A stretch of 64,000 nucleotides of DNA from Isurus oxyrinchus (Eukaryota): the NCBI GenBank assembly GCA_026770705.1, contig JANJGN010000003.1:115940001-116004000 (forward strand). The letters are read 5' to 3'. The notes below the pieces were generated by a model that ran no database searches, had not been told where the DNA came from, and saw only the letters and a list, made by a program, of their open reading frames with translations. Both the position numbers and the translations under genes were made by a program. Positions within the stretch are counted from its first letter, which is position 1. Every line of letters starts with the position of its first letter. Below are positions 1-53,000 of the stretch, in pieces.

Positions 1-316
1 GGCCAAAGCATGATTTCATCAAGATACTGGCTTCAAGGTGCCACATTCCAACTTTAACTTGGGCATGTTTTGCTGTGCACTCATAACACCCTCTGGAGAG
101 TAATATGCTTCCTTGTCCTCTCAGAAGAGCAGTAGTTCTGGAGTTTGAGGAAAATATATGTTTGACAATGTAAATTGACAAATTTAAATGGCATTTAAAT
201 TTAACAACACATGCACGGTTTTATCAAGATCCCTGAAAGTTACCATTGAAACCAAGGCGAGAATGGGACAGTTAATTCATGGGGCTCATTAACAGTCAGG
301 GAAATACTGCAACAAA

Positions 317-425
317 AAAAACAAAAACAGAATTACCTGGAAAAACTCAGCAGGTCTGGCAGCATCGGCGGAGAAGAAAAAAGTTGACGTTTCGAGTCCT
401 CATGACCCTTCGACAGAACTTGAGA
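317..425 (-). mobile_element. Penelope-like terminal-repeat fragment carrying a minimal hammerhead ribozyme
   Basis: Same repeat as 10431, 36268, 38758 and 49333. Flanked by the 11-bp direct repeat ACTGCAACAAA (306-316 / 426-436). Confidence 0.7.
382..420 (-). ncRNA. Minimal type-I hammerhead ribozyme motif (variant core CUGUCGA)
   Basis: Minus strand reads AGTT-CTGTCGA-A-GGGTC-ATGAG-GACTC-GAAA-CG-TC-AACT: stem I AGUU/AACU, stem II GGGUC/GACUC, GUC cleavage triplet. Confidence 0.6.
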
Positions 426-573
426 ACTGCAACAAATTGCCAGTGTTCACAGCTGCTTTCTTACCTCCCACTGGGAAATCGTTTGTTGAGAGTGCTGGTT
501 GTGATGTTAATTTCTGCACTTTGTAGACATTGACATTCAAAATGAGTATGGATAGGACTATGGCTGCCTTCGA

Positions 574-6025: not shown

Positions 6026-6944
6026 TTCCATAATAACTTGCCTCCCAACCAGCGCACTCCACACCTTTGTATACATCTCTAGGAAAATTGCATCCAATCA
6101 GCACTTGAATGCTAAACTTGCAGCATCAGTTTCAGGACCTTTAGGCACCTTTAAACACGATAATCATTAGCCCCAAAACTGTGTTCAAAATCTATACACA
6201 CCTGTTTTCACCCTTTGGCTAGGATAACCCCCCATGGTCTTTACAGATCCGTTGACTTAGCAATTTTAACTGAAGTATGGTATCAATAAGCATTCTTGCC
6301 ACCACAGGGATTGACATCACTGTATTTCATTACAAAATGACAAATCTAATTCCACATGTAGTCTGTTCATTTAAGTTGGAGTGCATCCATGAGCCCTTAA
6401 AGCGATAACCAATTCTATAGGACACAACTGATTTTCTGTGTCATCGTTGAGTCATTCAACACTTTCTTTTCATCATTGATATACCAGACAATAAGCAGTG
6501 AAATGTAGAATCAGAGGGCGTGATTACCCTGGTGTGTCATCTTCTGACATCATTTATATATTCTCATTGAGTGGAAGCAATAGTAAAAGCTACTTTGCAG
6601 CATGAATCTTCTTTTCAGTTTAGCACAATGCTTTAATGTTTGTTCAGAGCATCAATGTTACCTTGTTTTGAAAAGGCCAAATAGCTGTATCATGAAATCC
6701 ACTTAATGATAACTCTAATAAGAAAATAACACTTCCAGAAGCAACCTTGTCATTATGAATGAAAGTTAATATTATTGGACCTTTTTCCACTGCACAAAGC
6801 TAACTGAGAGTTTTCAGTTTGGGAAGTGTATTTAAACTGGTAGACAATGGTATCGCGGCCTCAAATTCATTCAAACTGATCTGGCAGACATGCTGCTATC
6901 ACATTCTATCGGTGGCTGCTTCATCCTGGGTTTTAGGGTTAACA

Positions 6945-7060
6945 TTTCCTACATTACAACAGTGACTATGCTTCAAAAGTACTTGATTGGCTGTAAAGCT
7001 CTTTGAGATATCCTGTGGTCATGAAAAGCGCTATATGAATGCAAATCTTTCTTTCTTTCT
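6945..7060 (+). mobile_element. Deu-SINE/LINE 3' tail fragment
   Basis: TTTCCTACATTACAACAGTGACTATGCTTCAAAAGTAC...GCGCTATATGAATGCAAATCTTTCTTTCTTT. Confidence 0.75.
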
Positions 7061-7764: not shown

Positions 7765-8040
7765 ATTTACCATTAACACCCCTTTGACTTTTGTATCATG
7801 AATCTTTTTGTCACTTAATCTCTCCTGACCTCCCCCTATCACAGTCCTTTCCCCTTGTTCTTTTTTCCCCTCCTCTCTCTCCTTTCACTTGCTCAAAACG
7901 TTTCTGCCTTTCCTCAGTTCTGATGATGGGTGATCAACCTGAAATGTTTCTCTCCACAGATGCTCCCTGACCTGCTGAGCACTTCAAGCATTTTCTCTTT
8001 TTATTTCAGATTTCCAGCACCTGCACTATTTTGCTTTTGT
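7765..8040 (+). mobile_element. Older Penelope-like 3' end / terminal repeat with canonical CTGATGA hammerhead core
   Basis: Pyrimidine-rich run, then AGTT-CTGATGA-TGGGT-GATCA-ACCT-GAAA and CTCTCCACAGATGCT...ATTTCAGATTTCCAGCA; similar to 32335-32682. Confidence 0.6.
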
Positions 8041-8146
8041 ACTGAGTATCAATTCCCCTGTCACAATTCTCAAGGGTCTTGAGCAGTACCACATATAATG
8101 GACACATTGAATGCAATATATTCAGATAAAAAGGAAAACAACGTTC

Positions 8147-8283
8147 AGTTCTGAAGAAAGGTACATGCCCAAAATGTCATAATTCATCTTTTCCCTTTAT
8201 GGATGCTGACAGGCCTGCTGTGTTTCTTCAGCACTTTTGTATCTTTGGTTCAGATTTCCAACATTTGCAATTTTTGCTTTTTT
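8147..8283 (+). mobile_element. Decayed Penelope-like terminal-repeat fragment
   Basis: AGTT-CTGAAGA-AAGGT..., GATGCTGACAGGCCTGCTG, TTCAGATTTCCAACATTTGCAATTTTT. Confidence 0.5.
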
Positions 8284-8315
8284 AAAAAGAATTATGTACC
8301 ATTTTAGTACATCAG

Positions 8316-8471: not shown

Positions 8472-10430
8472 CCTCTTTTTCTTATCCCTGTACATCAAAT
8501 TCCCTTCTTGTATTATTTAACAATGCCACAAAATAACCAAGATGAATATATGCAAACAGCTTCTTTGCATCAAAATGAAGTCTTAAGTGAACATGGGGCC
8601 CAAAGAGTACAAACTCATAAATATAAGAAGCAAGAATATCTTTGTGAAAGGCAGTCCAAACACATGCATAGGAATCACAACAAGTGGTATGGATACTGGG
8701 CATACAAACACATATCACAGGTCTGGACTATCCTCCAGCCACTGGGGTTTATTCTGTCCCCAACTATTAGCATATTAATCCTGAAGTATAAAATCTGCTA
8801 GATGTTTCAGGAGTTGAACACCTTAAAGAAGGCATCAAAGGAATAGGGCTAGTGGTGCATTTAGACAGTTGGCTAGATGTGCTAAAAGCCAGTTCTATGG
8901 GATCAGGGGCCTGGGCTGGAGGCTGCAAGACTGGATCAGATGGCTGCATCAGAACAGGGATCTGCGCTGGGGACTGCAAGATTAGACTAGGCGATAAAGG
9001 CTGTGTCTCTGGAATAGATATCAGTGTCTCTGCATCGGGAGGTAGGGGTCTGTCTCAAAGTCAGTGATTCAAACAGGACCGGGGGACATCGCAGGTTGTC
9101 GAATTTGCGTGGTTGATCCCAGTGTTGACAGCACTGGAGCTGTGGAAGGTGTGCACAGCTCAGCTAGTATGCTAGGGTTTGCAGAAACGGGCTGGACAGT
9201 TGTGGAACATTCATCGCGATTGGTAGAACTGTAGCTAGAAATGCAGCAGATCACAGAGCCAGTGCAGAAGGAAGCATCCTTGGAGCATTTAGATCTCTTA
9301 CCTTGATAAGTTGTGCTACGTAGCTGGGAACTGATGAACTTGTGAATATTGCACCAGCCATTGACAGAGGTAACCAAGTAGTGTCAGTGGGCCTGTGACT
9401 TGTTGAGATCAGCTTCAAGGATTACCTGATCTCCAAAATCAACTGAAGTGATTGTTGGTTGCACTCCTAGTGGGCCCTTGGATTTCTGACTGTATGGGCA
9501 ATTGATCTGGCAGGGTCAATGTTGATCCCCAATTACCCTCTCATCAGACAAGAGGTAATCAGCACATTGATGAACTGGTCTCTCACAGAAAAGCCTTGGG
9601 AACAAAGGAGTGATTTGAGTTGTGCAATGGCAATAGACAGGTCCAAAGATGTGATAGGACTTCCATGTAGTTTGTGGCTTTGAAGCTCACCCTCTAATTC
9701 CCATACTGCCCTCTCTGCTGCTGGATTCTTGTTGGGGTTCTTTGATCCCTCGAGCTCAGTCATAATGTGGTGCTCCTGAAGCAGCTTGTCAGCTAACTGG
9801 GTGGAAAACCCAGGGACAGGATCAGTCTGTACAGCAGCTTATGGACCATCTAGTGGACGAAACCCAAGGTACAACTGGAGGAGAGCATCTCTTAAGGTAT
9901 CATGGTGTTCATTGGCAATGATGTAAGCTGCTGTGTAACAAGTAACACACTTTAGCAAAACTAAATTTAGTTGTTGCTCACGCATGGTAACAGCAGCAGC
10001 AAATGAGATGCCAACCACCTCTGGAGGCTCACTTGAAGATTGGGGGACAATGTATGGAATGATCTGGAGAGCAGAATAAATATGTCAGTTAGCTGTAAGC
10101 TGCTCAATGGAGACATCCATGTCAAGTACATAGATATATCAGTGGGTGACCGATTTAAGTTGATGACATGATGGGTGACCATAATGGACAGCAGTGTTAA
10201 GGCCTTCCAGAACATCATGCGGAATAATAATGCATTCTCTGGAGGGGGCCAGGGGCTCATTGCGCCGAATGACAAGTAAACCATCCTGTTCAATCCATGT
10301 GGATTGTATAGCAATCCGGAGGTAGCCATGAGTGTTAGTAAGCTTTTTTAAAGGGTGGGTGCTTTGCAACACATGGGCACATGTGCGATGAAGGAGGGGA
10401 TATTCAGAGTCAGACTGGATAGCTAGCCAT

Positions 10431-10657
10431 AAAAACAAAAAACTGCGAATGCTGGAAATCCAAAACAAAAGCAGAATTACCTGGAAAAACTCAGGTCTGG
10501 CAGCATCAGTGGAGAAGAAAAGAGTTGACGTTTCGAGTCCTCATGACCCTTCAGCAGAACTTCTGCTGAAGGGTCATGAGGACTCGAAACGTCAACTCTT
10601 TTCTTCTCCACCGATGCTGCCAGACCTGAGTTTTTCCAGGTAATTCTGTTTTTGTTT
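10431..10657. mobile_element. Palindromic (inverted) Penelope-like terminal-repeat insertion with two hammerhead motifs
   Basis: About 100-bp near-perfect inverted repeat centred at 10560/10561. 15-bp TSD TGGATAGCTAG(C/T)CAT at 10416-10430 and 10658-10672. Sits inside Gypsy pol. Confidence 0.8.
10523..10597. ncRNA. Back-to-back minimal hammerhead motifs (one per strand, core CUGCUGA)
   Basis: Plus: CTGCTGA-A-GGGTC-ATGAG-GACTC-GAAACGTC-AACT (10563-10597). Minus: the same motif with the full AGTT stem-I strand (10523-10561). Confidence 0.6.
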
Positions 10658-11039
10658 TGGATAGCTAGTCATGCTGGACTGCTGGTGAAAGGGGCTTTTG
10701 TTGAGGCTGACACAATGTTATCAATAGATATCCAGGGAACAGTGGAATGTGAGGTCTGGTTTATGAAGGAACAGACTTGGCATGTGGGGACCTCACAGTT
10801 AGGTGCATTGGGGCTTGCAAAATCTGATGGGATATTCACAGATCCAGCTAGGTGTCTGACAGGGGTGTGGTAGTGACTTACTGTGGAAAGGAAGGTAGTG
10901 ACATGGGACTGGCAGAACATTCTCCCCTGCACAGTTTCTCAGAGGTCTACACACATGTTTTGTTGTCTGTAAGGACACAAGGATGATGCTTGAACTGCAC
11001 AATATATGGGCTGAAGCCATGTCTTCTTCATTCTGGGGC

Positions 11040-16679: not shown

Positions 16680-17145
16680 CTAGCTGAAGGAGTGTTGGAT
16701 CAAGGCATCCCTGGTGTTCCTGCCTCCCCGGAGGTTACTGATGTCTGGCTCCACACCCTCAGCGTTCTCCTCACTGTGCTCCTCTTCTGACTCACTACTG
16801 GCCTCATCATCTGTGGCTTGTGTAGCTGTGTGAAGATCCTCTTCCTCCAGTGGGTCCCCCCTTGTCAGTGCCAGATCGTGGAGAGTGCAGCATGTAACCA
16901 CTATCAGTGACACCCGCTGTGGGGAGTATTGTAGTGCAACCCCTGAACGATCCAGGCATCGGAAGCACACCTTCAGAGGACCTATGGTTCTCTCTATTAC
17001 AACCCTTGTGGAGGAATGGCTCCTGTTGTACCATTGCTCTGCCTCTGTCCTTGTGTGGCAGAGAGGTATCATAAGCCACCTTTTTAACGGATAGCCCTTG
17101 TCACCCAGCAGCCATCCATCCAGCCGAGCTGGAACACTGAAGACC
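16680..17145 (-). pseudogene. HARBI1-like transposase C-terminal fragment
   Basis: [15 protein letters not shown]..., [33 protein letters not shown], acidic tail; N-terminal half deleted. Confidence 0.85.
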
Positions 17146-18892
17146 CTTTGGCTTAATGACGTTGGGACACTCGCCTGACGTCATTTTACGTTCGAGTGGG
17201 TCAAGCGCGCCTGCTCACTCAGCGAAAAATTCTGCCCACAGTGTGTGCGAAGCACAAATAGGTGGGGACTTTTTCCTCTGCATTGCAACCTAGAAGTAAG
17301 AGCACACAGGCACAACATAAAGGAAAATGGGTCCCATAATTTGCCTTGGAGCTTTTGGGCTAGAGTGGAGATTAAAAAAAAAACTATCAATTGATTTCCA
17401 TTCCTGATTGCCATTCACCAGTTAGTAAATGGGGAGTACTCACCAGGATATCAGCTGAGAACAGAATCAGGATTGGCATTGGGGGGCCTGAGCCCCAGGA
17501 GAGCAGGATCCACAAGGTGCAAATCATTGTGGCCCGTGCTGGGAGAGAGGGCTCAAGCCTTCTCCTGTACCATATGCTTCAGATAGTTACAACCGTGAAC
17601 GTGTTGGGAAACATTATTCAGACATAAAGGCTGGTAAATTCAACAGGTTTCCCTACGACGGGCCATTCAATCTCCCATTCTCTTCGGCAGGAGGGGCTGG
17701 AGAATCCTGCCCAAAGTTTGAGTTTTATTGACTCCTTCCTGAGTAATTGTGGGATGTTTTAAAGCTCAGCCAATGCCTCCTGTGGCCTCGCAGCAGGAGG
17801 AAGAGGAAATTACATTTTAATTGCATGTGGCCCATGTCGCCAGGGAATGAAAATCTCTGGGACACAGGAAGTCTGACTGTTTGGTGAACTGGTCACAAAG
17901 CTATGTGACTCCAGGGCTAAGTTTATAAAAACACATTGTCATTCCCATATAATGGTGAATTGCATTGTTGTGGGAGCGCAGGCAGGTGTTGGGGGACATG
18001 GGGGCTGAATGCATCTGCTGATGGTGCTAGTCACGGGGCTGCTGCACATTTTTCCCTTATTTGCAAAATGCTTGTCCCCCCTTGACCTGGGACCCAGGGG
18101 AGGGTTGGGGAGTGGTGGGGGGTCAGGGAAGGGCAACATCTAGGTAACTTTGACAGAATTTTTGAAAATCCAGGTGGTCAGCCATGGTTTTGTTTATCTG
18201 GAGACTAAACAGTCTCAAAACTGCAACCCACAAGAAAAACGAATACATCCAATGACAATTATTTTACATGAGGGACCAATCTCTCAGTTCAATTTTAAAA
18301 GCTGCTTCTAAAAGTTATGGGACTGTTATCTTGCACTTAACGAATTTATGCATTTAAAGGAAGCTTAACATGATAATGTTGACCTCTGTCTTGATTTATT
18401 TGCTACTTGTACAATCTTTAAGCTGATCTAGATACTGGAACAACAGTTTTGTGCTTATCTAAGGGGTAATTATGAGTCTGTGCAGCAAGCAACCTTGCTC
18501 ACTTGCAACATTTTTAAAATTTGGGCTGGGCAGCCATTGTGGACCCATGAAATCTAATGTTAACAGGATGCTATCACTCCTGTGGAAATGTTGTATGTAA
18601 TCTTTAAAGCAATTAACTTATTAAACAACTCATTTGCCTAAAACGCTAATAAACTCACTGGACATTCCCAGGTTTCCATTGCTGACAAAATTCTTGCCCA
18701 TGGAGAATTTTCTCCTGCTAGAAAGTAGTCTTCCCCCAACACCTCAGTTTCATTCCATTATTACTGCAAGTTTTCCCTCATCCTGCATAGTTTAAAACTG
18801 CATGATATTTTTAAAAAATGACTAGCAACTAATGTCTAAAGATTTAAAAAGGTATCGAATTTTCAGTTGCTGTTCAGTTTACAGAAACTTTT

Positions 18893-21759: not shown

Positions 21760-21978
21760 GGAGAGAATTTTCCCCATGTCGGGCGGGGTCACCGGCGATC
21801 AGAACCACACCGCCATTTTACATGGGCGGGCAAACTAAAGCCCACCCAGTGTGCTTGGCGACTCCTGGGGATGGCAGGAGTGGGCAGGCGGAGGCCAATC
21901 AGCAATTGACGCCGGGTCGAATGGTGAGCCAGCGGCCTGTTTAAAGGCCAAGCTGCAGCCGCTCCAAGGCTGCTGTAC

Positions 21979-24231
21979 ATGGCCAGAGGTCAGAGCCAAG
22001 GCACATCAAGGCTCACCATGCAGGACAGTAAGGCGGGTGGTCACTGTGTGCTCAGGTTTTCAGACGAGTGCCTTGCTGCCCTCCTGGAAGAGGTGGCAGC
22101 ACGGCGGCATGTGCTTGTCCCCGAGGACAGGAGGAGAAATCCACCCCACTTCACCAAGCGTGTGTGGGAGGATGTAGTGGAGATTGTGACCTCCCGCGAC
22201 GTGGTGCTGTGCTCATGGACCCAGTGCCGCAAGCGCTTCAACGACCTGCTGCACATGAGAAGGGTGAATAGCATGTTGGCATTGTTCATTCACCCATCAT
22301 GTAAGTTTCTCCCCCACTGGTGGACCACCCATGTCTGAGTGGCTTGAGAGTAGCGAGTCTTTGATGGCATATGTCCTCAGCTGGGCGGGCCAGCAGATAT
22401 TCCCTATGCGTTGGTCAGCCTGAGAGGGTTGTGATAAGATGGGTTCTGCACCCGCAGCATGTGGGTGGACTGACACCCACATGACTGTGGTGTGGGCGAC
22501 CTGGAAAACCTGCACCCAGGCACAGTGCTCGACCTCCAGAACATGTCGAAGTCAGGGTGATGACATGTTGGGAGGGGATGTTCAAGGTGGTGTGGCACAG
22601 ATAGATCTGCTGCCCTCTGTGCTCCACATCATTGTGCCTCCTTGTACGGCAGGTGTGTGCTCCCAAGTGTGATGAAGGCCAAGGGTGCGTGGAAGGGAAA
22701 GACACACCTGGCATATTTGTGTGAATGTTCGGCAGCAGCGGGGGAAGGATGCATTGCACCCCTGCAATGGGCAACTGGGCTTGGGGTGGGCTGGCTGCCA
22801 GGACATTGACAGTACAAATATCACTTATCAATGCTATTTTTTCATTTCCAGGAGAAGAATTCTCATAACACCACCAAGTGGCTGAGGACTGACCATGGGC
22901 CAGACCAGATTTTGCTGCTTAGCCGTTTTGAGCAGGAGGCCCTTGATCTGGAGAGGTGGCATGCACCCAGGTCCACTGGAGCCGGAGAGGCTGGGGTTCC
23001 ACAGGCAGGTATGTTAGGCCAGCACTCACGTTACCAGTAGTCTCCCAACAGCCATGGCAGTGCTGATTGTTCAGTGAGTGATGTCACCAACATGGCTTTC
23101 CCATTGCGTGTGGAATGATGAACACATGATGCTCCGGGGGACAGGCATATACATTGACATTGCCCACATGCTAGGCTGATCGAATTTCCTTACTCTCCTT
23201 TTAGCATCAGCGGTGCAGAGCCGGGACCCGGAGCAGCAGGGACCCCCTCTGACACCTGAGGGACATGGAATTGCACCATCAGAAGCATCACACCATCTCT
23301 GCCGGGCAGGCACCAGCGCAGATACTGGCACCTTGGTGGGCATCACACCTTCGGCTAGTGTCCCAGAACACAGCAGTGAGGGCACTTCACAGTCGCTGGA
23401 GGAAGTAGCGGAGACTAAAAATGCCGATGGCTCCCACAATCAGAGGACTGCAGGGGCCCAGTGTTGCTGGAGGGGCTGGTGGAGACAGAGAGTGCCCATG
23501 GCGCCAGCAGTTGGAGGACTGCAGGGGCCCAGTCACATGCTCAGTCCATGGCCGATGATGAACCTCTGGAGCCGTTGGCGATGCAGCCAACTGATGAGAT
23601 GCAGCTGGGTGTGTGGGAGCATCTGGTGGAGATACATGAGGCTGTTCTTGGCTTAGTGTCAGTGGTGGAGGAGTCCACGCTGACCGTAACCAATGCATTG
23701 AGCTTCATGGCTGTGCACCAAGCTTCCTCCATAGAGAGAGTGGCGACTCTCATGGAGAGGCAGCTCCAGGGACGGCATCAAGGGTTCCTGGGGTTGCGCT
23801 CAGATCTGCAACCCCTCACAGTGGCATTGATCTCAGGTGGTCAGTGCCCGTGTAGGTGGTGGTTTGAGCACCAGGTCTCCCACCTCGGTGCCCATTAATC
23901 TACACTGAGCAGGGAGGGCCGAACGGACTTCATGTCGGCTGAGCAGCTGCCTGGCATCTCTGCGGGCACCTCTCAGGGTGGCAGCTCCTCTGCCCCTCTG
24001 TCAGTGACCCCGGCACCCAATGAGGCTGCAACGACTGGGGAGATGCCAGCTGCGGTGCTAGCAGCTCCCTCCTAGGCGAGGCAAACAAAGACTCCACAGG
24101 CCAGGGAACATTTGCCAAGGACATTGTGGCCAACAGGACAGGAGAGAGAGCAGCCTGTCTCATATGCCAGTGCCAGCGAGGGGACAGCACAAAGAAGTAG
24201 CACCCACAAATGTAAAATGAAGGCACCTTAG
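21979..24231 (+). pseudogene. Harbinger Myb/SANT-like gene, 3 exons (21979-22263, 22852-23008, 23205-24231), disrupted in exon 3
   Basis: RFSDECLAALLEEVAARRHVLVP...WTQCRKRFNDLLH. GT-AG introns with compatible phases (AGG|GTGAAT...TTTCCAG|GAG; CAG|GTATGT...CTTTTAG|CA). Frameshifts and stops downstream. Confidence 0.85.
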
Positions 24232-24532: not shown

Positions 24533-25769
24533 CTAGCTGAAGGTTCCTTGGACTAGAGTGTCCCAGGTGTCCTTGCCTCCCTGGAGTATGCCCGGGTCAG
24601 TGTGTGCTCCCTCAGCATTTCCCTAGGTGTGCTCATCCTCGGACTCACTGCTGAACTCATCGTGTTCAGCCGCAGCCACTCCACCTACATCTTCTTCGTC
24701 CACAGCACCCCGCTTTGCAGCACAAGATTATGGAGTGCGCAGCATGCAACTGCTATCACCGAGACACGATCTGGGGGGGTACTAAAGTGCGCCCCCAGAA
24801 CGGTCCAGGCATCGGAAGCGCATCTTGAGAAGACTGATGATTCTCTCCACCACAGCCCTTGTGGAGGTGTGGCTCCTATAGTACCGCTGCTCAGCTTCTG
24901 TTCTTGGATGGCGGAGAGGTGTCATGAGCCACCTTCTGAGGGGATAGCCCTTGTCACCCAGCAGCCATCCATCCAGCCGAGCTGGAGGACTGAAGACCCC
25001 GGCACCTGGGAGTGTCTGAGGATGTAAAGCGTCGTGGGAGCTGCCTGAGTAGCTTGCACTGACTTGTCGAATCAGCATCCTGTGATCACACACTATCTGC
25101 ACATACATGGAGTGGAAGTCCTTCCTGTTGATGATGGCACTGGGCTCACCTGCTAGTGCCTTGATGGCCACATATGTGCAGTCTATAGCACCCTGGATGC
25201 AGGGGAAGCCAGCAATGGCCGCGAAGCCTCTGGCTCGCTGTGTCTGGCTGGCCTCATCCCAGCGGTAGTGGATGAAGGTCAATGCATGCCTGAACAGAGC
25301 GTCGGTGACCTGCTTGACATAAGTGTGGACAGCTGATTGCGAAACATCACAAAGATCACCCACCAGCCCCTGGAAGGAGCCAGAGGCATAGAGGTTGAGG
25401 GCAGCTGTGACCTTTAGAGCCACTAACATGGGGTGTCCACCCACACATTTAGTTGGGAATCTCTGGACCAATCATCTGACAGAAATAGTTGACTGTCTCC
25501 CTTGACAGATGGAGCCTCCTTTGGCACTGTACATCAGACATATTGAGGTAGCTGCTTCACCTTCTTTAAACCCTGGCAGCAGGATAGTGGCATCATCTGC
25601 AGTCCCTTGAGCCTTGGACTACCTCTTGGCACTGCGTCCCTTGTGCTTGCACCTGTCCTCCCAAAGGTGGCTCCCCTGCAGGCTGAATGTGCACTCCTGG
25701 CCTCCTCCCCCTTCTAGCCCTCCCTTCCTCCTCAGATGAGGTGCCTCCAGTGGAGAGATCACCTCCCAT
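24533..25769 (-). pseudogene. HARBI1-like DDE transposase, frameshifted
   Basis: [88 protein letters not shown]; several stops and frameshifts. Confidence 0.92.
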
Positions 25770-27260: not shown

Positions 27261-30200
27261 AGTAAGGGGCCTGATCACCAAACTCGGTTTTAAAAGGGAG
27301 GCCTTCATGGATCCAGGTCACCCTCTGAGCAAGATAATACCGATATGGTTGACTTCCATCTCTCCTCACTCAGCCAATATCTGTCACATGAATGTTGGGT
27401 TCTGGCCGTGGATTAGAAATGAGGACTCTCAGTTTAGCCAAGGTGGTCCCCACGCATGGTCTCCCTCACTGATGGAAATTCTATGCCGTGCAAGTCAATT
27501 AGGGATAATCCCTGAAACAGCAGAAATGCAGAGGAACTAGGTCTTCAACATGTCCCTGAGGGTTCTACCTGCCTATGGTACTGTGAAAGATTAACAAACA
27601 CTCTACAGAATTTCAGGGTCAGGGTCATTATCTTTACTATACAAGTCAAGGAAAACAATCAATAATTAGTTCAATTGACAACATCTGTTAAGTGAGGTAG
27701 ATTAGATCGACATTTCAATTTGACCAATTTGTTAATGTCTAAATAATGCAGTAAGTAATTTTACTGTAAATAAAGTGTGTAAACTTACAAATGGGAGCAT
27801 GGCAGCATAGAGTGCCAGAACACTGCCCTTTCACCTCTGGGATCCCAGTTGAAATCTATCTTGGACTGAATGATTCTCTGTTCGCTCTAATGCCTTAATG
27901 GATCAAAATGACACAAAGTTTAAGACAGTCCTCAGCAAGAAATTTAAAGCACCTCATGTTTAGCAGCAGGCAGTAAATAGGATATTAAATTATGTTTGCA
28001 GTTCTGAAGTGAGAACATGACTCATTAATGATATTTACCAACATCGCATTACTATTTGCAGTATTTATATTTTCAAGAAAATGTGCAGAATACAACATTA
28101 TTTATGTTCAAATAGTCTATTCCACTTCAAAGGTCTAATAGTGTGCTTCTCGTTGTTGTTGTGCCGGTTGTTGCAGCACACTTTTAAACTCAGCTGTATA
28201 TTTCACAGAAACGTGAAGCTAAAATGGGGATGCTATTTTATTTAGTGGCAAATTATTTTAAGCTGAGTAGAAGTAGAGCAATAGTAGAGCAATAGCAAAT
28301 GTAAAGTAAGAAACTGTGCTTTGCATTTCACTAATAAGACCCTGGCAGAAAACTATCAGTCTGACTGAATAGCACACAAAGAGCTATCATGCATTTCAGA
28401 TCACAGGGTCTGTTTTAAGTTAGTGTGATTGCTAGGAATTGAGGATGACACAGGTTGCGTAGGGGTGCTCAATATAAGCAGCCCTTCAGAATTCCACATC
28501 TAAACACCAGAAATCAGTAGCTGTGGACCTGTGTGTTTCTGTGTTGGTTTTACTTGTTTTTTGAACTGAGCTAGGAGTGCTGTACCACTAGACATTTTTC
28601 TCCCTGCTTGGTTTTAGTCAGCACACGATTTTGTTTCCTGTACAGCTAATTAAGGCTCTTTTACTGAAATTCTCCACATTCCACAAACATGAAGTAACAT
28701 TTTTGTGTATTAATTCTGTTTTCATGGTCAGTTTTTGTCACACAAGCAAATGTATGTCAGTTTGGCATTGCACACTAATTAGATTAATAATTTCAAACAA
28801 AACCTGATCCATTGATTACTGATGTCTTGTTTACTTAAGCCTTGTTTTGATTTTTTGCCTATGAGAAAATATGAAGTTCAATTTCCTTAGCTTTCAATGT
28901 TGAATTTTCAGAGAAACTGGCATAATGAGGAAAAATGTTTTTTGGAAGGGGTGATTGTCATCAAAATTGAAATGTCTGCGTGATAACAGAATCTGTCATG
29001 GCCCCTCAGAACATGTGCCCTCAGGAAAATAGTGGACAAAGAGGTCTTCATTGAGAAACACACAGCCATGTGGAGCCTCTCATCTCGAAGGCACCAGCAG
29101 GAATCCACTAATGTTTTTCTCACAGTCAAGAAAGCATAATAGGGAAAATCTATTACTGTTCAGAATGCAAATGAGTTAATAGCAAATGTAGCAGCACTGA
29201 AAGATTTTGTTGAATATTTTAGCTTGTTTGGCAGAGTGAGTTTTATTCCTGATTAGAAGTAAAGCTGGTTAACAAACAGAAACAATAAAAGCATTTGTCT
29301 GACACTTAGTCAGGCAGTCATTCAAAGTGTTCAACAAAATGTATAAATTTTGGTTATCAATTAACTACCAGAGGCAGTGCAGGGTCCCAGTGGTTACGAC
29401 ATTTGACTAGAAAACAAGTGATCATGAGTTGAAATGCTATCAGTAATTTGTAGACTAGCACCAGAAAAATAATAATGAGAGTTCCTGGACTCATTAATTA
29501 CCTTACCTAGCCCATACATACTCCAGGAACATAATATGGGTTGTCTCTTAATGCCTTCTGAAATGAGCTAACAAAATGTTTCTATCAAGTTCAAAAATAA
29601 GGGGAAAAAGGGGGTAACTCTGCAAAATTCTCTTTTCCAACAACTAGGGACTGGTACTCAAGATATTAAAAACTTTGTAAGACTATGTCATGTGAGAGTC
29701 ATCATCCCATAGTCAAGCACCCCTGGCCAAGTCCTGTTCCATTGGCCAATCAGACCCACCAGAGATGCGGGCACACTGCTGGGTAAATGTGGTTTTCACT
29801 CTAGATTGTCAATAATCATTGTTTCAGGTTAAACAAGGCCAAATAAAACCCCTGATGTTTACCACTGATGGTCCACACTTAACTGACACATCAGTGCTAT
29901 GTTGAATTTCACTAGGACAAGGTTCTGATGGATGCAATAGTACAGATTATCCAACTCCATGAGTAAATTAATAACATTACTGACTGAGCTGGCCTGAAAG
30001 ACCACGGATGTCAGACTGTATTTGGAATCAACCCAGAATCAACCCTAAGTGTGGTAGCAGGCGGGTAAAACAACAGCCGCAATGGCGGATTTTCATGCCA
30101 TGTCATCCCAAACCTACCACATTAATTATGCATTCCCGGGAAACACTCCATTTACATGGCAGGTGGGCTCTCATTTGCCCGCTACGCCATCACCTCACCA

Positions 30201-30285
30201 CTTCAGCACACCAGGTGCCATATTTAAAGTCCAGCCATGCGCACACATCTCAATGCTTCCAGCCAACGACTGCTGAAAAGAAGAC

Positions 30286-32334: not shown

Positions 32335-32682
32335 ATTAACATGTTCTGCTTTCTTACCTTAATGCCAGTATCAGCACCTCCTTTAGCCCTTACCACTACC
32401 ATTAACACTCCCTTTGTCTTTTTGTTCATGACATCTTTGTCAATATTTCCTTAGCCCCCATCTATCGCTGGCCTTCTATCCAGCTTCACCTACTCCACTC
32501 CAATTAAACAGTATAAATTTCATCACATTTGTACTTTTCTTTAGCTCTGAAAAAGGGTCATGCGGACTCAAAACATTAACTCTGTTTCTCTCTACACAGA
32601 TGCTGTCAGACTTGCTGAGTTTTTCCAGCACTTTCTGTTTTTTAGTCAAATTTCCAGCATCTGCAGTATTTTGCTTTTATCC
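32335..32682 (+). mobile_element. Penelope-like 3' end with decayed hammerhead motif
   Basis: CTGAAAA-AGGGTC-ATGCG-GACTC-AAAACATTAACTC, then CTCTCTACACAGATGCTG...TTTCCAGCATCTGCAGTATTTTGCTTTT. Confidence 0.65.
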
Positions 32683-34364: not shown

Positions 34365-36267
34365 TGTGGTCACTGAGATGAAGATGGTTGGGCCGAGGGC
34401 ATTACCTTGAGAGATTCCTGCAGTGATGCCCTGGGACTGAGATGACTGACCTCCAACAACCACAACCATCTTCCTTTGTGCTAGGTATGACTCCAACCAG
34501 CAGAGAATTCTCCCCCTGATTCCCATTGACTCCAATTTTACTAGGGCTCCTTGATGCCACACTCGATCAAATGCTGCACTGATGTCAAGGGCAGTCACTC
34601 TCACCTCACCTCGGGAGTTCAGCTGTTTTGTCTATGTTTGGACCAAAGCTGTAATGAGGTCAAGAGCTGAGTGACCCTTAAGGAACCCAAACCGAGCATC
34701 AGTGAGCCAGTTATTGCTAAGCAATTGCTGCTTGATGGCAATGACTTGCCCATCACTTTGTTGATGATCGAGAGTAGACTGATTGGCTGAGTTGGATTTG
34801 ACCTGCTTTCTGTGATAGGACATACCTGTGCAATTTTCCACATTGTCAGGTAGATGCCAGTGTCGTAGCCAACTGGAACAGCTTGGCTAGGGGCATGGCT
34901 AAGGGCTGGAGCACAGATCTTGAGTACTATTGCCAGAATGTTGTTAGGACCCTTAGCCTTCGCAATATCCATTGCCTTCAGCCATTTCTTGATATCACAT
35001 GGAGTGAATCAAATTGGCTGAAAACTAGCATCTGTGATGCTGGGGACCTCCGGAGGAGGCTGAAATGAATCACCCATTCAGCACTTCTGGCTGAACATTG
35101 TTGCAAATGCCTTGTCTTTTGCACTGATGTGCAGGGCTCCTCCAGCATTGAGGGTGGGGATATTTGTGGAGCCTCCTCCTCCAGTGAGTTGTTTAATTGT
35201 CCACCGCCATTCATGACTGGATGTGGCAGGACTGCAGAGCTTAGATCTGACCTGTTGCTTGTGAGATCATTTAGCTCTGCCTGTCACATTCTGCTTTCGC
35301 TCTTTGGCATGCAAGCAGTCCTGTGTTGTAGTTTCACCAGGTTGACACCTCATTTTTAGGTATGCCTGGTGCTGCTCCTGGCATGCCCTCCTGTACTCTT
35401 CATTGAACCAGGGTTAATCCCTGGCTTGGTGGTAATGGTAGTGGGGGATATGCCAGACCGTGAGGTTACAGATATTGTTCGAGTATAATTCTGCTGCTGC
35501 TGATGGCCCACTGCATCTCATGGATGCCCAGTCTTGAGTTGCTGGATCTGTTCAAAATCTATCCCATTTAGCATTGTGGTAGTGCCACACAACATGATGG
35601 GGGGTATCCTTAATGTGAAGGCAGGACTTCGACTCCACAATGACTGTGAGGTGGTCACTCCTACCAAAACTGTTATGGACAGATGCATCAACTGCAGGCA
35701 GGCTGGTGAGGATGAGGTTAAGTGCGTTTTTCCCTCACCACCTGCTGCAGATCCAGTCTAGCGATGTCATTTAGGACTCAGCCAGTATTGATGCTACTTA
35801 GCCACTCTTGGTGTTGGGCATTGAAGTCCCACACTTCAATTCTGTGCCCTTGCCACCCTCAGTGCTTCCTCCAAGTTATGTTCAACATGGACAAGCACGG
35901 ATTCATCAGCTGAGTGAAAGTAATCAGCAGGAGGTTTCTTTACCCATGTTTGACCTGATGTCATGAGACTTCATGTGGCCCAGAGTCAATGTTGAGGACT
36001 TCAAGGGCAACCCCCATCCCGACTGTATACCATTGTGGTGCCACCTCTGCCCTGCCAGGGATGGTGGAGTCTGGGACATTATCCATAAGGTATGATCTCG
36101 TGCGGATGATCAGCCTGTTGCTTGACTAGTCTGTGAGACAGCTCTCTTCAATTTTGGCACTAGCCCCCAGATGTTAGTAAGGAGGACTTTGCAGGGTCGA
36201 CAGAGCTGCGATTGCCATTATCGTTTCCAGTGCCTAGGTCGATCCATCCAGTTTCCTTCTTTTTGTA
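34365..36267 (-). mobile_element. Non-LTR retrotransposon ORF2 fragment (endonuclease to mid-RT; CR1/Jockey group)
   Basis: VTALDISAAFDRVWHQGALVKLESMGIRG...GISQGNALGPTIF; KAKGPNNILAIVLKICAP; ARFGFLKGHSALDLITALVQ. Confidence 0.85.
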
Positions 36268-36453
36268 AATATATATATAAAAACAAAAAACTGCGGATGC
36301 TGGAAATCCAAAACAGAAACAGAATTACCTGGAAAAACTCAGCAGGTCTGGCAGCATCTGTTGAAGGGTCATGAGGACTCGAAATGTCAACTCTCTTCTT
36401 CTCTGCCGATGTTGCCAGACCTGCTGAGTTTTTCCAGGTAATTCTGTTTTTGT
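36268..36453. mobile_element. Inverted Penelope-like terminal-repeat insertion with one hammerhead core
   Basis: Arms CAGAATTACCTGGAAAAACTCAGCAGGTCTGGCAGCAT / ATGTTGCCAGACCTGCTGAGTTTTTCCAGGTAATTCTG. 16-bp TSD TTTCCTTCTTTTTGTA (36252-36267, 36454-36469); short (AT)n filler. Confidence 0.8.
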
Positions 36454-36479
36454 TTTCCTTCTTTTTGTAGCGGTTTGTT

Positions 36480-36720: not shown

Positions 36721-36853
36721 GCATTCCCTGCGTTATAATAGTGGCTACACCTCAAAAAGTACCTTATTGCTGTATAGTGTTTTGAGACATCCAATGGTCA
36801 TGAAAAGCCCTTTATAAATGCAAACCTTTAATTTTATCTACATATGAAACATT

Positions 36854-38518: not shown

Positions 38519-39335
38519 TTATGGTTCAGTTGGTAGCGCTCTCACCTCTGACTCACAAGGTTCAGGTTCAAGTCCCACTACAGGGTCTGAACACAAAAAT
38601 CAAGGCTGACAGTTCAGTGCAGTACTGAGGGAGTGCTGCACTGTCAGAGATGACATCTTTCGGATGAGATGTTGAACCAAGGACTTCTGCCTGCCCAGGC
38701 GCATGTAAAATTTCCCATGGCACTATTTTGAAAAAGAGCTGGGGAGTTATCCCAATGCAAAAACAAAAATACCTGGAAAAACTCAGCAGGTCTGGCAGCA
38801 TCAGTGGAGAAGAGCAAAGTTGACGTTTTGAGTCCTCATGACCCTTCAACAGAACGAAGGGGGGTATCTCCTCCTATCAATGCTTGCTTGTCCCAACAAT
38901 ACCCCCCTCCTTCTTCCCCCCCACGCCCCAAACCAGCTTATAATTCACCCCTTTCTTATTTCTACTTAGTTCTGTTGAAGGGTCATGAGGACTCGAAATG
39001 TCAACTTTGCTCTTCTCCGCCGATGCTGCCAGGCCTGCTGAGTTTTTCCAGGTATTTTTGTTTTTGTTTTGGATTTCCAGCGTCCGCAGATTTTTTTTTA
39101 TCTCTGAGTTATCCCAATGACCTGGCCAGTATTGATCCCACAATCAACGTCACAAAAACAGATTATCTGGCCATTATCATATTGCTGTTTGTGGGAGTTT
39201 GCTGTGTGCATAATGGCTACCATGTTTTCTGCACTACAACAGTGACTACACTTCAAAACATACTTCATTGACTGCAAAGCGCTTTGAGACGTCCAGTGAT
39301 CGTGAAAGGTGCTATGATCGTGAAATGTGAGTTTT
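38519..39335 (+). mobile_element. Full Deu-domain tRNA SINE (SacSINE1-like) interrupted by a PLE-like insertion
   Basis: A/B boxes; GCAGTACTGAGGGAGTGCTGCACTGTCAGAG...TCTTTCGGATGAGATG; 3' tail ACAACAGTGACTACACTTCAAAA...GCGCTTTGAGACGTCC. Confidence 0.85.
38758..39105. mobile_element. Inverted Penelope-like terminal-repeat insertion with about 110-bp spacer and two hammerhead motifs
   Basis: Arms about 38758-38855 and 38969-39066; 14-bp TSD GAGTTATCCCAATG (38744-38757, 39106-39119). Confidence 0.8.
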
Positions 39336-41200: not shown

Positions 41201-41384
41201 GTAAGTGTCTGTATAGTAAATCCAGGAAACTGAAATTGGCTAGTCAATTAATTGTCAAGAAGTATAGGCATAGATTTTTACCCTGAGCAGACTTTGGGCA
41301 GCTGGCCAACCCCACAAAATTAAATATCAACTTAACAGTGCTTGACCCAGCAATGCCCTAAAATGGCAAATGGGGCCCCTAAAA

Positions 41385-48397: not shown

Positions 48398-48820
48398 TGG
48401 AGGTCTTGTGGCACAGTAAGTCATGTCCCTGCCTTTGAACCAGCAGTTCTGAGTTCAGTCCCACCTCAAGACTTGATGTCCAAGGAAGGTGCCTCCATAA
48501 CTTGGCATCATAAAAGCAAAGGGATGCTGGAAGTCTGAAATATAAAATGCTGGAAAAGCTCAGCAGGTCTAACGGCATTCTGTGGACAGAAAAACAGAGT
48601 TAACACTTCAAGTCTTATGACCCTTCTTCAGATTATCAACCTTTCATTACAGACCCATGGCAGGTTGTAAGAGCAAGAGAGATTCCTGGTCAGCTATGTA
48701 ATGGAAAGAAAGTTGGCGCCTCTATCGTTGATATCCATAGCTTCAACCCACATCATGCATGTAAGGTGCATGTTGCCACAGCAATTCAAACTTGCTGAGT
48801 GATCTGTAGCACACCACCAC
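48398..48820 (+). mobile_element. Putative tRNA-headed SINE interrupted by a PLE-like fragment
   Basis: TGTGGCACAGT (A-box-like) and GAGTTCAGTCCC (B-box-like); 3' extent uncertain. Confidence 0.4.
48508..48632 (-). mobile_element. Penelope-like terminal-repeat fragment, decayed hammerhead with CTGAAGA core
   Basis: Minus strand CTGAAGA-AGGGTC-ATAA-GACTT-GAAGTGTTAACTC... Confidence 0.6.
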
Positions 48821-49332
48821 TCTGCTACTATTTGAGCAACTTTGTTAAAATCGAGGTAATTAAGGCTAATTGCAACACTGCCACTGTTATCCTCACTGAA
48901 AACATCAGGTTTGAATCTAGCGGTTACTTTTGATTTTGGGTGTAAACAGGACGATAATGATTCAGCCGCATATTATATGTCTCCCGATTTCCATTTAAGT
49001 CAACGCGAGTGAAATGCGGCGTCTATGTTTAACTGGCGGCTGAAGCAAAACCCTTTTGGATGTTTCTGGTGCTCTGGATTGCTTAGTTCCGCATCAGTTG
49101 ATTCATTTCCAGTTGAGTTCAGACATTCCCTATTTTATAGTTATTCGAGAATCATTGCAGCACTTTATTCTGCCCTGAATGATTAGTCAGTGATCGGAAA
49201 AAACTAATCCACCTTATTTATATACAGCACACTCATTTTAGTCTAATATCATACCTTATGAGTGTGTGTATGTTTTGATTCAGTGTCCATTACTGAATAA
49301 TTGTGAACAAAGCACAATGTCACTATCTTATT

Positions 49333-49439
49333 TATCTTAGTTCTGTTGAAGGGTCATGAGGACTCGAAACGTTAACTGTGCTCTTCTCCGTCGATGCTGC
49401 CAGACCTGCTGAGTTTTTCCAGGTATTTTTATTTTTTGT
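49333..49439 (+). mobile_element. Penelope-like terminal-repeat fragment
   Basis: Same family as 38758; imperfect 13-bp TSD TCACTATCTTATT / TCACGACCTTATT. Confidence 0.7.
49339..49377 (+). ncRNA. Minimal type-I hammerhead ribozyme motif (core CUGUUGA, palindromic stem III AACGUU)
   Basis: AGTT-CTGTTGA-A-GGGTC-ATGAG-GACTC-GAAACGTT-AACT. Confidence 0.6.
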
Positions 49440-49649
49440 TCACGACCTTATTACCAGCTGCTTGCAATGCTCCTGATTTTACTCCCGTAACTCGCGTTTT
49501 AGAATGATAATAAACAAACTAATATTTATCTTCAAGCACAGGCTTGGCTTTCTTTGGGGCACTGCACTTCCATTTATATATTAACATTGACATTTATTTC
49601 TAGCGTGTTATCATACATTATCTGACATATTAAATGACTTTAATTTTCT

Positions 49650-49932: not shown

Positions 49933-50060
49933 GCTCTGAAGAAGAGTCATAAGGACTCGAAGGGTTAACTCTGTTTTCTCTCCACAGATGCTGCTGAGTT
50001 TTTCCAGTTTTTTCTGTTTTTGTTTCAGATTTCCAGCATCCGCAGTATTTTGCTTTTATC
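49933..50060 (+). mobile_element. Penelope-like terminal-repeat fragment, canonical CTGAAGA core with perfect stem II
   Basis: CTGAAGA-A-GAGTC-ATAAG-GACTC-GAAGGGTTAACTC...CTCTCCACAGATGCTG...CAGATTTCCAGCATCCGCAGTATTTTGC. Confidence 0.65.
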
Positions 50061-53000
50061 TTTGCGCTTGGGAGTTAATCGATCCTGTGCCATTTCCATT
50101 ATTGAACACCAGAGAAGAATGGTGTCACACTGAATAGTTTGTAAGCATATCCCATTATTTATGTGGGAAGAAAATGATTTTCATGGCCTCTAACGGGCGA
50201 GAATGGGGCCATTCTGAAAATCATGGGGCTAATTGTGATCCTTTTCCCGGTCACTATTCTCCTGGCTCCTTTTTCTTTGGCCCAAAACAACGGAGGGCGT
50301 GGCGGACCGCTTGCTTCTGCCATACGAGTCATTCGGGTATGTCAATTGTGCCCCGATGATGTCCTTAAGACATTGAAGTAATTTTGAGGTACAAATGCAT
50401 GGAGTGTGCCCCAGCCCTATTTGTACTCAATAGACTGGCCTTAATGGGTCTCTCAGAAAACCAACAAAGATAATTTTACAAAAGATTTATGTGGGGCCAA
50501 AAGGAGCATTAGTGGCCCCATTCTCCCCCTGAACGGCGAGTTGCCTGTGAGCACTTGCGCAGCGCTTTCCGCCCAAAGTTAAAATTGTTCCAATTTATTG
50601 TGTGTGGACTTGAGCCAGCAGGAACAATCTTGGATTTTTTTTTATTTTGACAAAAGTGTCTTGGTGCCTTTGTAAACGTCAGGAGAGAAAAGCACTTTGG
50701 AAACGCGTTGCCACTATGCTTAAGCACAGACGTTGAGCAACAGGATGAAAAGTATTCCTAAAATTCTATTTTGACAACACTACAATCCATTTCCATCTAT
50801 ATCGAGGCAAACTGAGTTGATCACTGCCACAAAAGTGTAAGTCATGAAATTCCATGGAGCTACACTTGAAATCAATTCAGCTTTTAACTGAGTATGACAT
50901 CAAGACGCAGCAAGTCTTTATGCCCTATTGAAGTTAATGGAAAGTAAAATCATGCGGACTGTAAAATGGGCGCCCCGTCTATTTCTGTCTTTCTACTTCA
51001 GGTGAATTAGGTTAAAATTGTCCCCTATTCCATTTTGTACTTATGTTGACTTTTTCACCAAAATCAAGAAGAGGAAATTTACACCCTCATCCCCCTAATC
51101 TGGCCCCATAACCATTCATATATTGCGTAGTTTGATTTCATGTTTCAAAAGCATGGCATAAAATTAAAATCAGAATTAACCTTTTTACTATGAATGCCAT
51201 CAAGTTCTGTGTTTATCTTTGTTTTTGTCTTTAAAAACTTTCTTTAAAGTATATAGTTTGTAATGAAATGCAAGATTCATTCGCTCCCTTCGGGGCATTG
51301 ATTTCAGTTAGTGTGACACACCAGGTACACCAGCGCATTTTTCTACAGTTTTTCTCAAAGTAAGAATTTTGCAGAAGGCAACGTAGAAAGCAAGCATGAG
51401 TAAGAATTTCTATCTTGTATTCTCCAGTGTATTTCCCAATTCAAGTTGATGTTTATTACTGTACAGATCAGGCTGCATGAAATCATAATTTCAGTCAGTT
51501 CAATCTTTGAGCAACACTTGATAGTTTGGTGACATTTTCCAAAAGGAAGAGGATAAAAGCCCAAAAGGGACTGATCACAGATTAAGAAAGAACACAGACA
51601 TCTTGCAAGCAACTGATTTTGTTGAATAACACGACAGTGAAGAGAGTGCCCTGGGGCATTTTTCCAAGTTGCCCACTCTGTGTGCCAGCCATCTGTATCC
51701 ATTTAAAAAAAAGCAGGGAACCTCATCTTCTCAGGTTGCAGGGCTGAGTGTGGGCTCTTTGCTGGACCTAAACCTTCTGCCAGGACCTTCTCAAACCCAA
51801 GTGCATCCGCTGATCCCTCCAGAGGAGTAATTGCACCAACACCAGCTGCAAGGATGCATGTTTAGTGTATCTTTTCATTCAATCTGAAAGATGTTGAGCA
51901 GAAATATTCAGAAGCTGTCGTGCTTGGAATTGAATAAAAAAGTAAGTAGGAAAATCAGGGTAGAAAATGAAAACTGGAAAGCATCCATAAATTAGAGTAA
52001 AATCATTTGTGATGCTGGTAATTTCCTGCAGTGGACTCATTCATTCACTTTAATGCACTTAACCCAATAAATTACGATGATTTATGTTACTGAATTTTGT
52101 ATATTGTCAGACAAAATCAAATATTCAAATGAATGAATCTGCTGTGTATTCATCCTTCTTCAATGCATCATGATTTACTGTATGAAAGAAACAAAACTAT
52201 CTGTGATTATAATTAATACCAAACTTCAGTTGTTTTTATCAAGAGACCTGGGACTGATCCAAATCAATTGTGAATGTGTATTTGGTGTGTTACATTCTTG
52301 AATCACATTTTTTGAAAAGAAAATGAGTTTTATCACTAAGCATAGGGAAAATACAGAATCATCTGAAATTTACAAGTTCAACTACTACAACCACAGTTCT
52401 GCTGACCAGAGTTTTGTCTTCATTTTAATAAGGACATGGTTCTGGACAAATGACTGAACATATTTCCTTAATCAAATTTAATTTAAAAAGACAATATTTG
52501 TTGAGTATGGGATTTTTCAACATTATGCTACTTTAAATTCACACTAAACGTGCATGTATCATTTACATTGAAAGCCTTTTCAACTGGAATTTCTGTTCCA
52601 GCAAGTAATTTGTGGGTTGCACTAAAGGGTATCATTGAAAGTCAAAAGAACATTCAAACAAGATAACTGGTTTTAGTTCAAAAACATACCACTAGCACAA
52701 ATGTTATGTGTTATAAAGTTTAGCACTATTAAGTAAATATTTATTTCAGCACAGAATTAAAGTATGGTGCTCACTCATATATATCCTGCTCTCTGTAGGA
52801 GCAACACCATTATATAAATAAAGAGAAACTTCAGTTCAGAGTATATTAAACTAGCACATTTCTGACTCAAAAGGAATGGGAATAAAATCAATTATCAAGA
52901 TGTTTTTTTCCAGGATGTAAACAACATCTGACAATGTCAATACAATGCACCAAACAAGCTGAATGGCTAATTGAGGAAATCATTCAATTAATTTATAAGT

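Follow-up and report, generated by a model that had tools for sequence, protein, structure and literature searches.

Within a 64-kb stretch of Isurus oxyrinchus DNA (the window, by which we mean the whole of the stretch that was analysed), about ten short, related insertions carry a hammerhead-ribozyme motif, some of them as inverted pairs, and their form raises the question of whether they are cut-short ends of a Penelope-like element (PLE) or an independently amplifying, retrozyme-like element. Our answer is that these insertions are a known class, with an insertion pattern that has already been described for it, and that they are very probably the ends of a PLE. What is added here is a change at position 6 of the hammerhead core in the young subfamily, the spacing of a TATA-like box, and a fixed start of the inverted arms as opposed to variable direct arms.

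Copies of the family in the window

An HMM built from four copies was used to search the window, and its 13 matching arms (E 1e-41 to 7e-15) all lie at the ten loci that the original prediction had listed, with no further copy at E ≤1 (Table 1). In sum, the family occupies ~2.0 kb, or 3.1% of the window. The three inverted-repeat units of that prediction were also recovered, at 3/10 loci (10431, 36268 and 38758), each of them head-to-head; no head-to-tail tandem is present at any of the ten. What had to be given up is the notion of a fixed 110-bp unit: three copies reach 100-210 bp upstream, and the 3' ends fall at two sites.

The same unit is abundant in public contigs of two related organisms (runs X1 and X8), being carried by 54,633 contigs from about half of run X1 and by 32,614 from ~77% of X8. 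Exact-pattern scans returned nothing from metagenome contigs or from viral contigs. A single exact-pattern match in prokaryote genomes was set aside as chance, since only the 22-nt pattern itself aligns.

Table 1. Copies of the family in the window and their parts (offsets count from +1, the first base of helix I; sites 1 and 2 are the two 3' end sites)
Feature	Position	Strand	Details
Focal unit, left TSD	10416..10430		15 bp; overlaps the 3' end of the element by its last 2 nt
Focal unit, right TSD	10658..10672		one mismatch relative to the left copy
Focal unit, direct arm	10430..10561	-	+1 to site 2; ~33-nt tail at about 10430-10462
Focal unit, hammerhead motif of direct arm	10523..10561	-	core CUGCUGA (C6); predicted cut after 10527; fits relaxed descriptor
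Focal unit, inverted arm	10561..10662	+	+3 to site 1, tail-less; 5-nt microhomology with the right TSD
Focal unit, second hammerhead motif, in inverted arm	10559-10597	+	C6; predicted cut after 10593; fits relaxed descriptor
Inverted unit 36268	36252..36469		16-bp perfect TSD 36252-36267/36454-36469; short (AT)n addition
Unit 36268, direct arm	36277-36357	-	starts at ~+55, hence without the ribozyme; has tail
Unit 36268, inverted arm	36357-36455	+	+4 to site 1
Inverted unit 38758	38744..39119		14-bp perfect TSD 38744-38757/39106-39119; ~9 nt of filler between arms
Unit 38758, inverted arm	38758-38855	-	+2 to site 1
Unit 38758, direct arm	38865-39105	+	starts at -103; TATA-like box at 38939 (-29); has tail
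Solo young copy (element 317-420)	306..436	-	+1 to site 1; core CUGUCGA; 5 extra nt at 5' junction; 11-bp TSD 306-316/426-436
Older copy	7765..8040	+	A6 core; upstream sequence of ~150 bp, rich in pyrimidines; 3' end at site 2
Old, decayed solo copy	8145..8285	+	starts at about -2; ends at site 2
Older copy	32335..32682	+	~208 bp of upstream sequence; A6; ends at site 2; TATA-like box at 32512 (-31); left boundary approximate, from the original prediction
Older solo copy	48510..48632	-	+4 to site 2; A6
Solo young copy (element 49333-49439)	49320..49452	+	about -3 to site 1; core CUGUUGA
Older solo copy	49933..50062	+	+2 to site 2; A6; 9-nt internal deletion

Ends of the copies and the upstream region

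The 3' ends of the 13 arms fall at two sites that lie ~33 nt apart: site 1, in a T tract near +100 (5/13 arms), and site 2 (8/13). In all three inverted units it is the direct arm that ends at site 2, with a tail, and the inverted arm that ends at site 1, tail-less. Among the contig positions listed, loose ends recur at site 1, at 39068-39070 (166, 184 and 213 contigs in X1; 290, 300 and 351 in X8), and they also occur near site 2, at 39089 and 39099.

The 5' starts, the offsets of which were read by eye, are concentrated at the 5' edge of the ribozyme, where nine of the 13 arms begin between -3 and +4 (i.e., within 8 nt); the others begin at -103, at about -151, at about -208 and, in one case, at about +55. 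If truncation were uniform across the range of starts observed, such clustering would have P ~5e-10. The original prediction had considered 'extreme 5' truncation' of a PLE, which is only partly right, the starts not being random. No element end, 5' or 3', coincides with the predicted cleavage site (+35) among the 13 arms. Among the 24 contig positions listed of ~800, there is no 5' loose end at +1.

Three long copies extend upstream of this edge. The upstream parts of 7765 and 32335 align with each other (42 nt, 86%, E 5e-9), that of 38865 aligns weakly with both (E 0.09-0.4), and 63 X8 contigs run past 38865 into sequence that resembles the upstream parts of 7765 and 32335 (agreement 0.85). 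Because these parts align as homologues and are continued in contigs, we read them as one homologous, pyrimidine-rich region and the unit as the end of a longer element.

A TATA-like box lies at -31 and at -29 in two of the three long copies, and the third (7765) has no TATA. The +1 position sits in a motif of the TCAGT/TTAGT type, which we take to be initiator-like by comparison with the initiator consensus. Summed contig depth across +1 climbs from 0.51 to 12.9 million in X1 (~25-fold) and from 0.59 to 5.4 million in X8 (~9-fold), a step that we treat as a hint, contig depth not being copy number and the upstream part perhaps simply diverging more. In all three long copies a pyrimidine tract ending in YAG directly precedes +1; the region can also be read as a polypyrimidine tract followed by a YAG splice acceptor. 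No common exon 1 was seen in the nine short 5' flanks. With the arm starts clustered ~30 nt below a TATA-like box, +1 is probably a transcript start, and most of the short copies (stubs) would probably be promoterless run-off cDNAs.

Target-site duplications

Candidate target-site duplications (TSDs) were scored against 300 random window pairs, among which the maximum score was 9. Long TSDs of 11-16 bp had been proposed for five copies; four of these, of 11, 15, 16 and 14 bp (317, 10431, 36268 and 38758), exceed all 300 random pairs, and all four belong to the young subfamily, whereas the fifth, a 13-bp candidate at 49320/49440 with two mismatches and a score of 7, is at chance level, being equalled or beaten by 98 of the 300, even as it coincides with the element junctions. 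No TSD beyond chance was found at the remaining five of the ten loci (7765, 8147, 32335, 48508 and 49933). Matches of 7-8 bp at 7765, 8144 and 32335 were rejected as TSDs, such lengths being at chance level. The junctions also show 2-5-nt microhomologies or short additions.

Inverted units

In the focal unit, two arms of 102 nt (10458-10559 and 10561-10662) form a hairpin; they are 98% complementary and separated by a 1-nt spacer. Folding predicts a long hairpin (-191 kcal/mol) for either strand, with a stem II pair probability of 0.0, and because both strands fold in this way, neither hammerhead motif is predicted to form in a finished read-through RNA. The proposal of one ribozyme on each strand of a hairpin with ~100-bp arms is thus upheld to the extent that a motif occurs on both strands, but both have C6 and neither folds inside the hairpin. 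A miRNA reading of the hairpin was discarded: none of the Rfam miRNA matches attains the gathering score, and they stem from the palindrome.

The two arms of unit 10431 have in common a 3-bp deletion and C6, and they differ at one non-CpG position in 97, versus 2-11 differences to other loci; those of unit 38758 differ from each other once, versus 4-8 differences to other loci. Because private changes are shared and differences are few relative to those between loci, both arms of one inverted unit appear to derive from one source. Unit 36268, with two differences over a 47-nt overlap, is uninformative for a common source.

A further feature of these units is that the inverted arms start at +3, +4 and +2 where the direct arms start at +1, +55 and -103 (10431, 36268 and 38758, respectively). 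The inverted arm of unit 36268 consequently has ~50 nt, including the ribozyme, that are absent from its direct arm. Similar asymmetric opposite-strand joints occur in contigs (38970-39034; three contigs each in X1 and X8). Alternatively, unit 36268 could owe its asymmetry to the later loss of part of one arm from what was once a perfect palindrome. Because 3/3 inverted arms start at the +1 edge and stop at the tail-less site, the pattern suggests that a second priming event lies behind them.

The hammerhead motif

From +1, the motif consists of a 4-bp helix I, the core at +5, one extra base, a 5-bp helix II with G10.1-C11.1, GAAA, and a palindromic ACGU remnant of helix III; the predicted cut is after +35. 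A relaxed descriptor (CUGNNGA, stem II, GAAANNUH, stem I) matches five arms and has no match in 20 random 64-kb sequences. A strict descriptor that adds A6 has no match in the window, and the canonical core is incomplete in every copy: nowhere is C3 U4 G5 A6 N7 G8 A9 combined with G12 A13 A14 and intact stems, as an active hammerhead would require. A6 is absent from 7/7 young arms (U in five, C in the two focal arms); 5/5 older arms keep A6, and each departs from the descriptor elsewhere. Hence the hammerhead fold with a CUGnnGA core, as first described, finds its counterpart in the five arms that fit the relaxed descriptor, but its 'nn' masked the loss of A6 in all seven young arms.

In Rfam, the hammerhead models gave no match at E ≤5, and the only hits were sub-threshold miRNA models on the palindrome. 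The original prediction had named a lack of covariation in stems I and II across copies, joined to a lack of cleavage even as a dimer, as refuting the ribozyme; among ten arms, a two-sided change was found in 0/9 pairs, and helix II is 100% paired in 10/10. Because the copies are too few and too similar, this null result cannot refute the fold. Folded in isolation, the motifs do no better than shuffled sequences (z 0.05, -1.34 and -0.16), which, like the absent covariation, speaks against the fold.

Contigs placed on the 38758-unit copy include no T-to-A change at position 6 (38975) among the positions listed. In X19 and X16, the only T-to-A change counted is at 39055, which puts A6 below 5% among young-type contigs, A6-bearing older subfamilies probably being clipped before position 6. 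At position 7, C is found in 37% (X1) to 69% (X19) of contigs, a mixture that would fit a CUGUCGA source with CpG decay.

In a hammerhead, the A6C change strongly lowers activity in Mg2+ and spares it in Mn2+ (PMC7151607, PMC3088659). Our literature search found no test of an A6U hammerhead; a related paper concerned twister ribozymes. The hammerhead of the young subfamily (U6, and C6 in the focal copy) is, to judge from its core, probably weak or silent, and neither end of the element is set by it. Because a position that is normally fixed has changed, and because the copies start just before the ribozyme and not at its cut, we suggest that the young copies spread without self-cleavage.

Comparison with Penelope-like elements

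Five of six features of endonuclease-positive PLEs are found in this family; the sixth, a single parent ORF with a PLE RT and a GIY-YIG endonuclease, was sought among the longer ORFs of the window. The minimal type-I hammerhead architecture is represented by the five arms that fit the relaxed descriptor, with covariation support absent; the optional tail of 30-40 nt, often at one end, is present in eight arms and absent from five; an inverted truncated copy adjoins the 5' end at 3/10 loci; a TSD surrounds the whole unit at 4/10 loci; and three copies, which reach 103-208 nt upstream, represent the varying-length copies of a longer element. It is the tail, the adjacent inverted copy, the TSDs and the longer copies that share an upstream region which bear out the PLE-end alternative of the original prediction. 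As for coding capacity, no RT or GIY-YIG domain is matched by any of the 32 ORFs of at least 120 aa in the window. Both this result and the lack of two-sided covariation count against the PLE-end explanation. Three window ORFs match Harbinger-type transposon domains.

Literature on sharks and Penelope yielded no title on the present family; existing variant lists and supplements may include it or a position-6 variant. Lunse and colleagues reportedly listed PLE hammerhead variants in 2017.

Published PLE insertions often have a 30-40-bp tail at one end and an adjacent inverted truncated copy (Craig et al. 2021, PMC8557442), and those of rotifers are described with a 31-bp tail, an inverted pLTR (pseudo-LTR), an 8-10-bp TSD, and a TATA and Inr in the pLTR (Arkhipova et al. 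2013, PMC3846280). The present units resemble such truncated or inverted insertions of endonuclease-positive PLEs in the head-to-head inverted pLTR at the 5' junction, the 30-40-nt tail on one arm, the TSD around the whole unit, the solo pLTR pieces and the TATA/Inr-like pLTR motifs. They differ from those published insertions in their size (100-350 bp), in having no ORF remnant, and in the concentration of 5' starts at one site; their TSDs (11-16 bp) are also longer than those of the rotifer examples in PMC3846280. The D. virilis Penelope promoter, for its part, is described as TATA-less and internal, a point against reading +1 as the transcript start.

Minimal type-I hammerheads of metazoan PLEs are reported as mostly single and dispersed, with some close opposite-strand pairs, and their cleavage is said to be weak and to require a dimer (Cervera and de la Pena 2014, PMC4209133), for which a dimer model exists (PMC6765202). 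Ours share with those of PMC4209133 the short helix I, the extra base before helix II, G10.1-C11.1, the palindromic helix III remnant and the occurrence as single motifs or close pairs on opposite strands, and differ in the 5-bp helix II and in the U or C at position 6 of the young copies; the accessible text of PMC4209133, which reports U3-A8, contains no position-6 variant.

A further parallel is PAc (Poseidon from Anolis carolinensis; Frangieh et al. 2024, PMC11167929), in which reverse transcription begins at two internal sites near the hammerhead; the tail lies between them, as it does between two sites here. The PAc protein is reported to nick and extend both strands and is modelled as a dimer; its ribozyme cleaves with the help of the protein, and PAc inserts equally well when the ribozyme is dead. 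The PAc ORF starts at stem II, whereas here the ATG frame in loop II ends after 18 codons, as read from the sequence, and the next ATG frame carries a stop in the commonest young variant.

A proposed insertion mechanism and its rivals

Relative to the rivals listed below, we consider it probable that the insertions are the pLTR end of several subfamilies of an endonuclease-positive PLE, inserted by a scheme of run-off synthesis and double priming. The pLTR end (hammerhead, T-rich tract and optional tail) would insert by target-primed reverse transcription, with staggered nicks giving rise to the 11-16-bp TSDs. The transcript would begin at the 5' edge of the ribozyme (+1), the TATA-like box ~30 nt above it being in the upstream pLTR. 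Reverse transcriptase primed at site 1 or site 2, ~100 or ~133 nt from the 5' end of the RNA, would run off the template, and integration of the short run-off cDNA would leave a promoterless stub; the longer copies that reach upstream would reflect priming on the downstream pLTR. In an inverted unit, one nicked strand would prime at site 2 and yield the direct arm, of variable length, and the other would prime at site 1 near the 5' end of the RNA and yield the inverted arm, with its fixed start. A narrow search found no two-priming or run-off reading of PLEs in print, and the literature that pairs 'Penelope-like' with twin priming or strong-stop contained no title on the PLE mechanism.

An unlikely rival, which concerns the same class and differs in mechanism, holds that ordinary 5' truncation of full PLE transcripts left these 3' ends, with RT stalling or RNA processing near helix I, and that the inverted arm arises by fold-back self-priming or from an antisense template, followed by asymmetric deletions at the centre of the palindrome. 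Its processing step could be splicing, given the tract ending in YAG before +1 in all three long copies and the D. virilis Penelope intron that ends at helix I (PMC4209133); against this, a splice acceptor gives no free 5' end, and the nine short flanks have no exon 1 in common. With regard to the inverted arms, self-priming on an antisense template has already been published for head-to-head PLE palindromes (PMC3846280), and the focal unit is a near-perfect palindrome with private changes common to its arms, but fold-back should start at the 5' end of the direct arm, whereas the inverted arms start at +2 to +4 regardless. For unit 36268, simple fold-back fails unless a deletion followed, because the inverted arm has the ribozyme that the direct arm is missing.

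Still less likely, in our estimation, is a non-autonomous, SINE-like PLE derivative, in which one or a few ORF-less solo-pLTR master loci give rise, from +1, to a short RNA; mobilised in trans, this RNA would be the source of most stubs, especially the young ones with U6. Such a derivative would suit the very high abundance of the unit in X1 and X8, the sharp common 5' start and the fixed U6, and it has precedents in that pLTR sequences alone can drive insertion in trans (PMC3846280) and non-autonomous PLEs exist (PMC8557442). On the other hand, the young copy at 38865 reaches 103 nt upstream and is continued in other contigs, so the subfamily has longer forms; the 3' ends are the two priming sites of a PLE, with no terminator or poly(A) tail; and the stubs are without a TATA-like box. 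The SINE-like and PLE-end readings yield identical stubs; they can be told apart only at the source locus, by what comes after the tail.

Retrozymes are described as tandems (150-450 bp, head-to-tail) that carry canonical ribozymes and yield circular RNA (Cervera and de la Pena 2020, PMC7229834; Li et al. 2026 bioRxiv). It is very improbable that the present units are non-LTR retrozymes, amplified by way of circular RNA that a ribozyme has processed: they are likewise non-coding, with a type-I hammerhead motif, a relation to PLE pLTRs and long TSDs (more than 4 bp in retrozymes; PMC7229834), retrozymes derive from PLE pLTRs and are present in one chondrichthyan genome (bioRxiv 10.64898/2026.07.22.740005), and rare head-to-tail contig joints do occur (39054 to 38976, depth 196; 39096 to 38972, depth 41), yet the depth of such joints is ~2e2 versus ~1e7 for the unit, the window has solo or head-to-head units and 0/10 tandem loci, starts range from -208 to +55 with ends near +100 and +133 and none at the cut site (+35), and the motif is of the minimal PLE type, not the canonical retrozyme type, with a young core that lacks A6, all of which speaks against the retrozyme-like alternative of the original prediction.

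Returning to the run-off and double-priming scheme, we can extend it, tentatively and with doubt, to the proposal that the dominant young retroelement family of this genome, fixed for U in place of A6, spreads mainly as 100-135-bp run-off cDNAs of the RNA 5' end, akin to retroviral strong-stop DNA, with inverted units arising from two primings at the tail sites; alternatively, U6 may be a working variant of the core.

Implications

If the focal locus is transcribed, its 102-bp hairpin would be a possible source of dsRNA. If the extended proposal is true, the stubs would be a genome-wide record of a PLE insertion intermediate, and they would provide in vivo evidence that catalysis by the PLE ribozyme is dispensable; the alternative, a working U6 core, is a variant that we did not find in the literature searched. 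Tens of thousands of contigs carry the unit, and their junctions hold a record of the way in which PLEs prime, end synthesis and form inverted ends; these steps are still called unvalidated in the cited papers that treat them. Should the U6 subfamily be the most active and yet catalytically weak, this would bear on what PLE hammerheads are for.

Rare joints in the sequencing contigs

Among public sequencing-run contigs from two related organisms, A and B, aligned to the 38758 copy as reference, rare contigs carry the hammerhead unit repeated head-to-tail (reference 39054-39061 joined to 38973-38983, and 39096 joined to 38972); one such joint passes through a 7-nt microhomology, with a period of ~86 bp and a depth of 196. 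Only in these head-to-tail forms could a dimeric hammerhead fold, and they might seed retrozyme-like arrays. Four of the 12 joints listed connect a point 3-4 nt beyond the predicted cut site with the region of +1, the first base of ribozyme helix I (reference 39005-39006 to 38968-38972); such joints may represent either tandems of the ribozyme alone or head-to-head junctions close to that site.

Sequence around the units

Extra nucleotides at three unit junctions are possibly untemplated additions by the reverse transcriptase (see table). The window also holds at least two decayed Harbinger/PIF-type DNA transposons. Besides the hammerhead units, a second family of dispersed repeats is present, whose copies have a common, SINE- or LINE-tail-like 3' end; two of these copies sit no more than ~110 bp from hammerhead units.

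Junction extras and other repeats in the window
Feature	Position	Strand	Basis
(AT)n run, 3' junction	36268-36276		
5 extra nt, 5' junction	421-425		
~9 extra nt, G-rich, 5' junction	38856-38864		
DDE_Tnp_4 nuclease, Harbinger/PIF-type	16683-17180; 24785-25471	-	domain match of ORFs
Myb/SANT-like gene, Harbinger/PIF-type	21928-22335	+	domain match of ORF
Repeat pair linked with Harbinger/PIF-type transposons	16921-17146 / 24774-24999		
Second dispersed repeat family	2364-2540; 6941-7054; 36567-36833; 39159-39335; 47339-47457; 58893-58997		
Another dispersed repeat, 168 bp, copies oppositely oriented	2130-2297 with 30076-30243		
Two-copy tandem, 71 bp	23392-23533		
(AT)n microsatellite	41384-41439		

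A young sub-variant in two organisms

At reference 39055, the sub-variant of the 317, 10431 and 36268 copies accounts for 56% of depth in organism A (sequencing run X1) and 21% in B (run X8), depth not being equivalent to copy number. Read with that same proviso, the larger share in A may reflect continued spread since the two organisms split.
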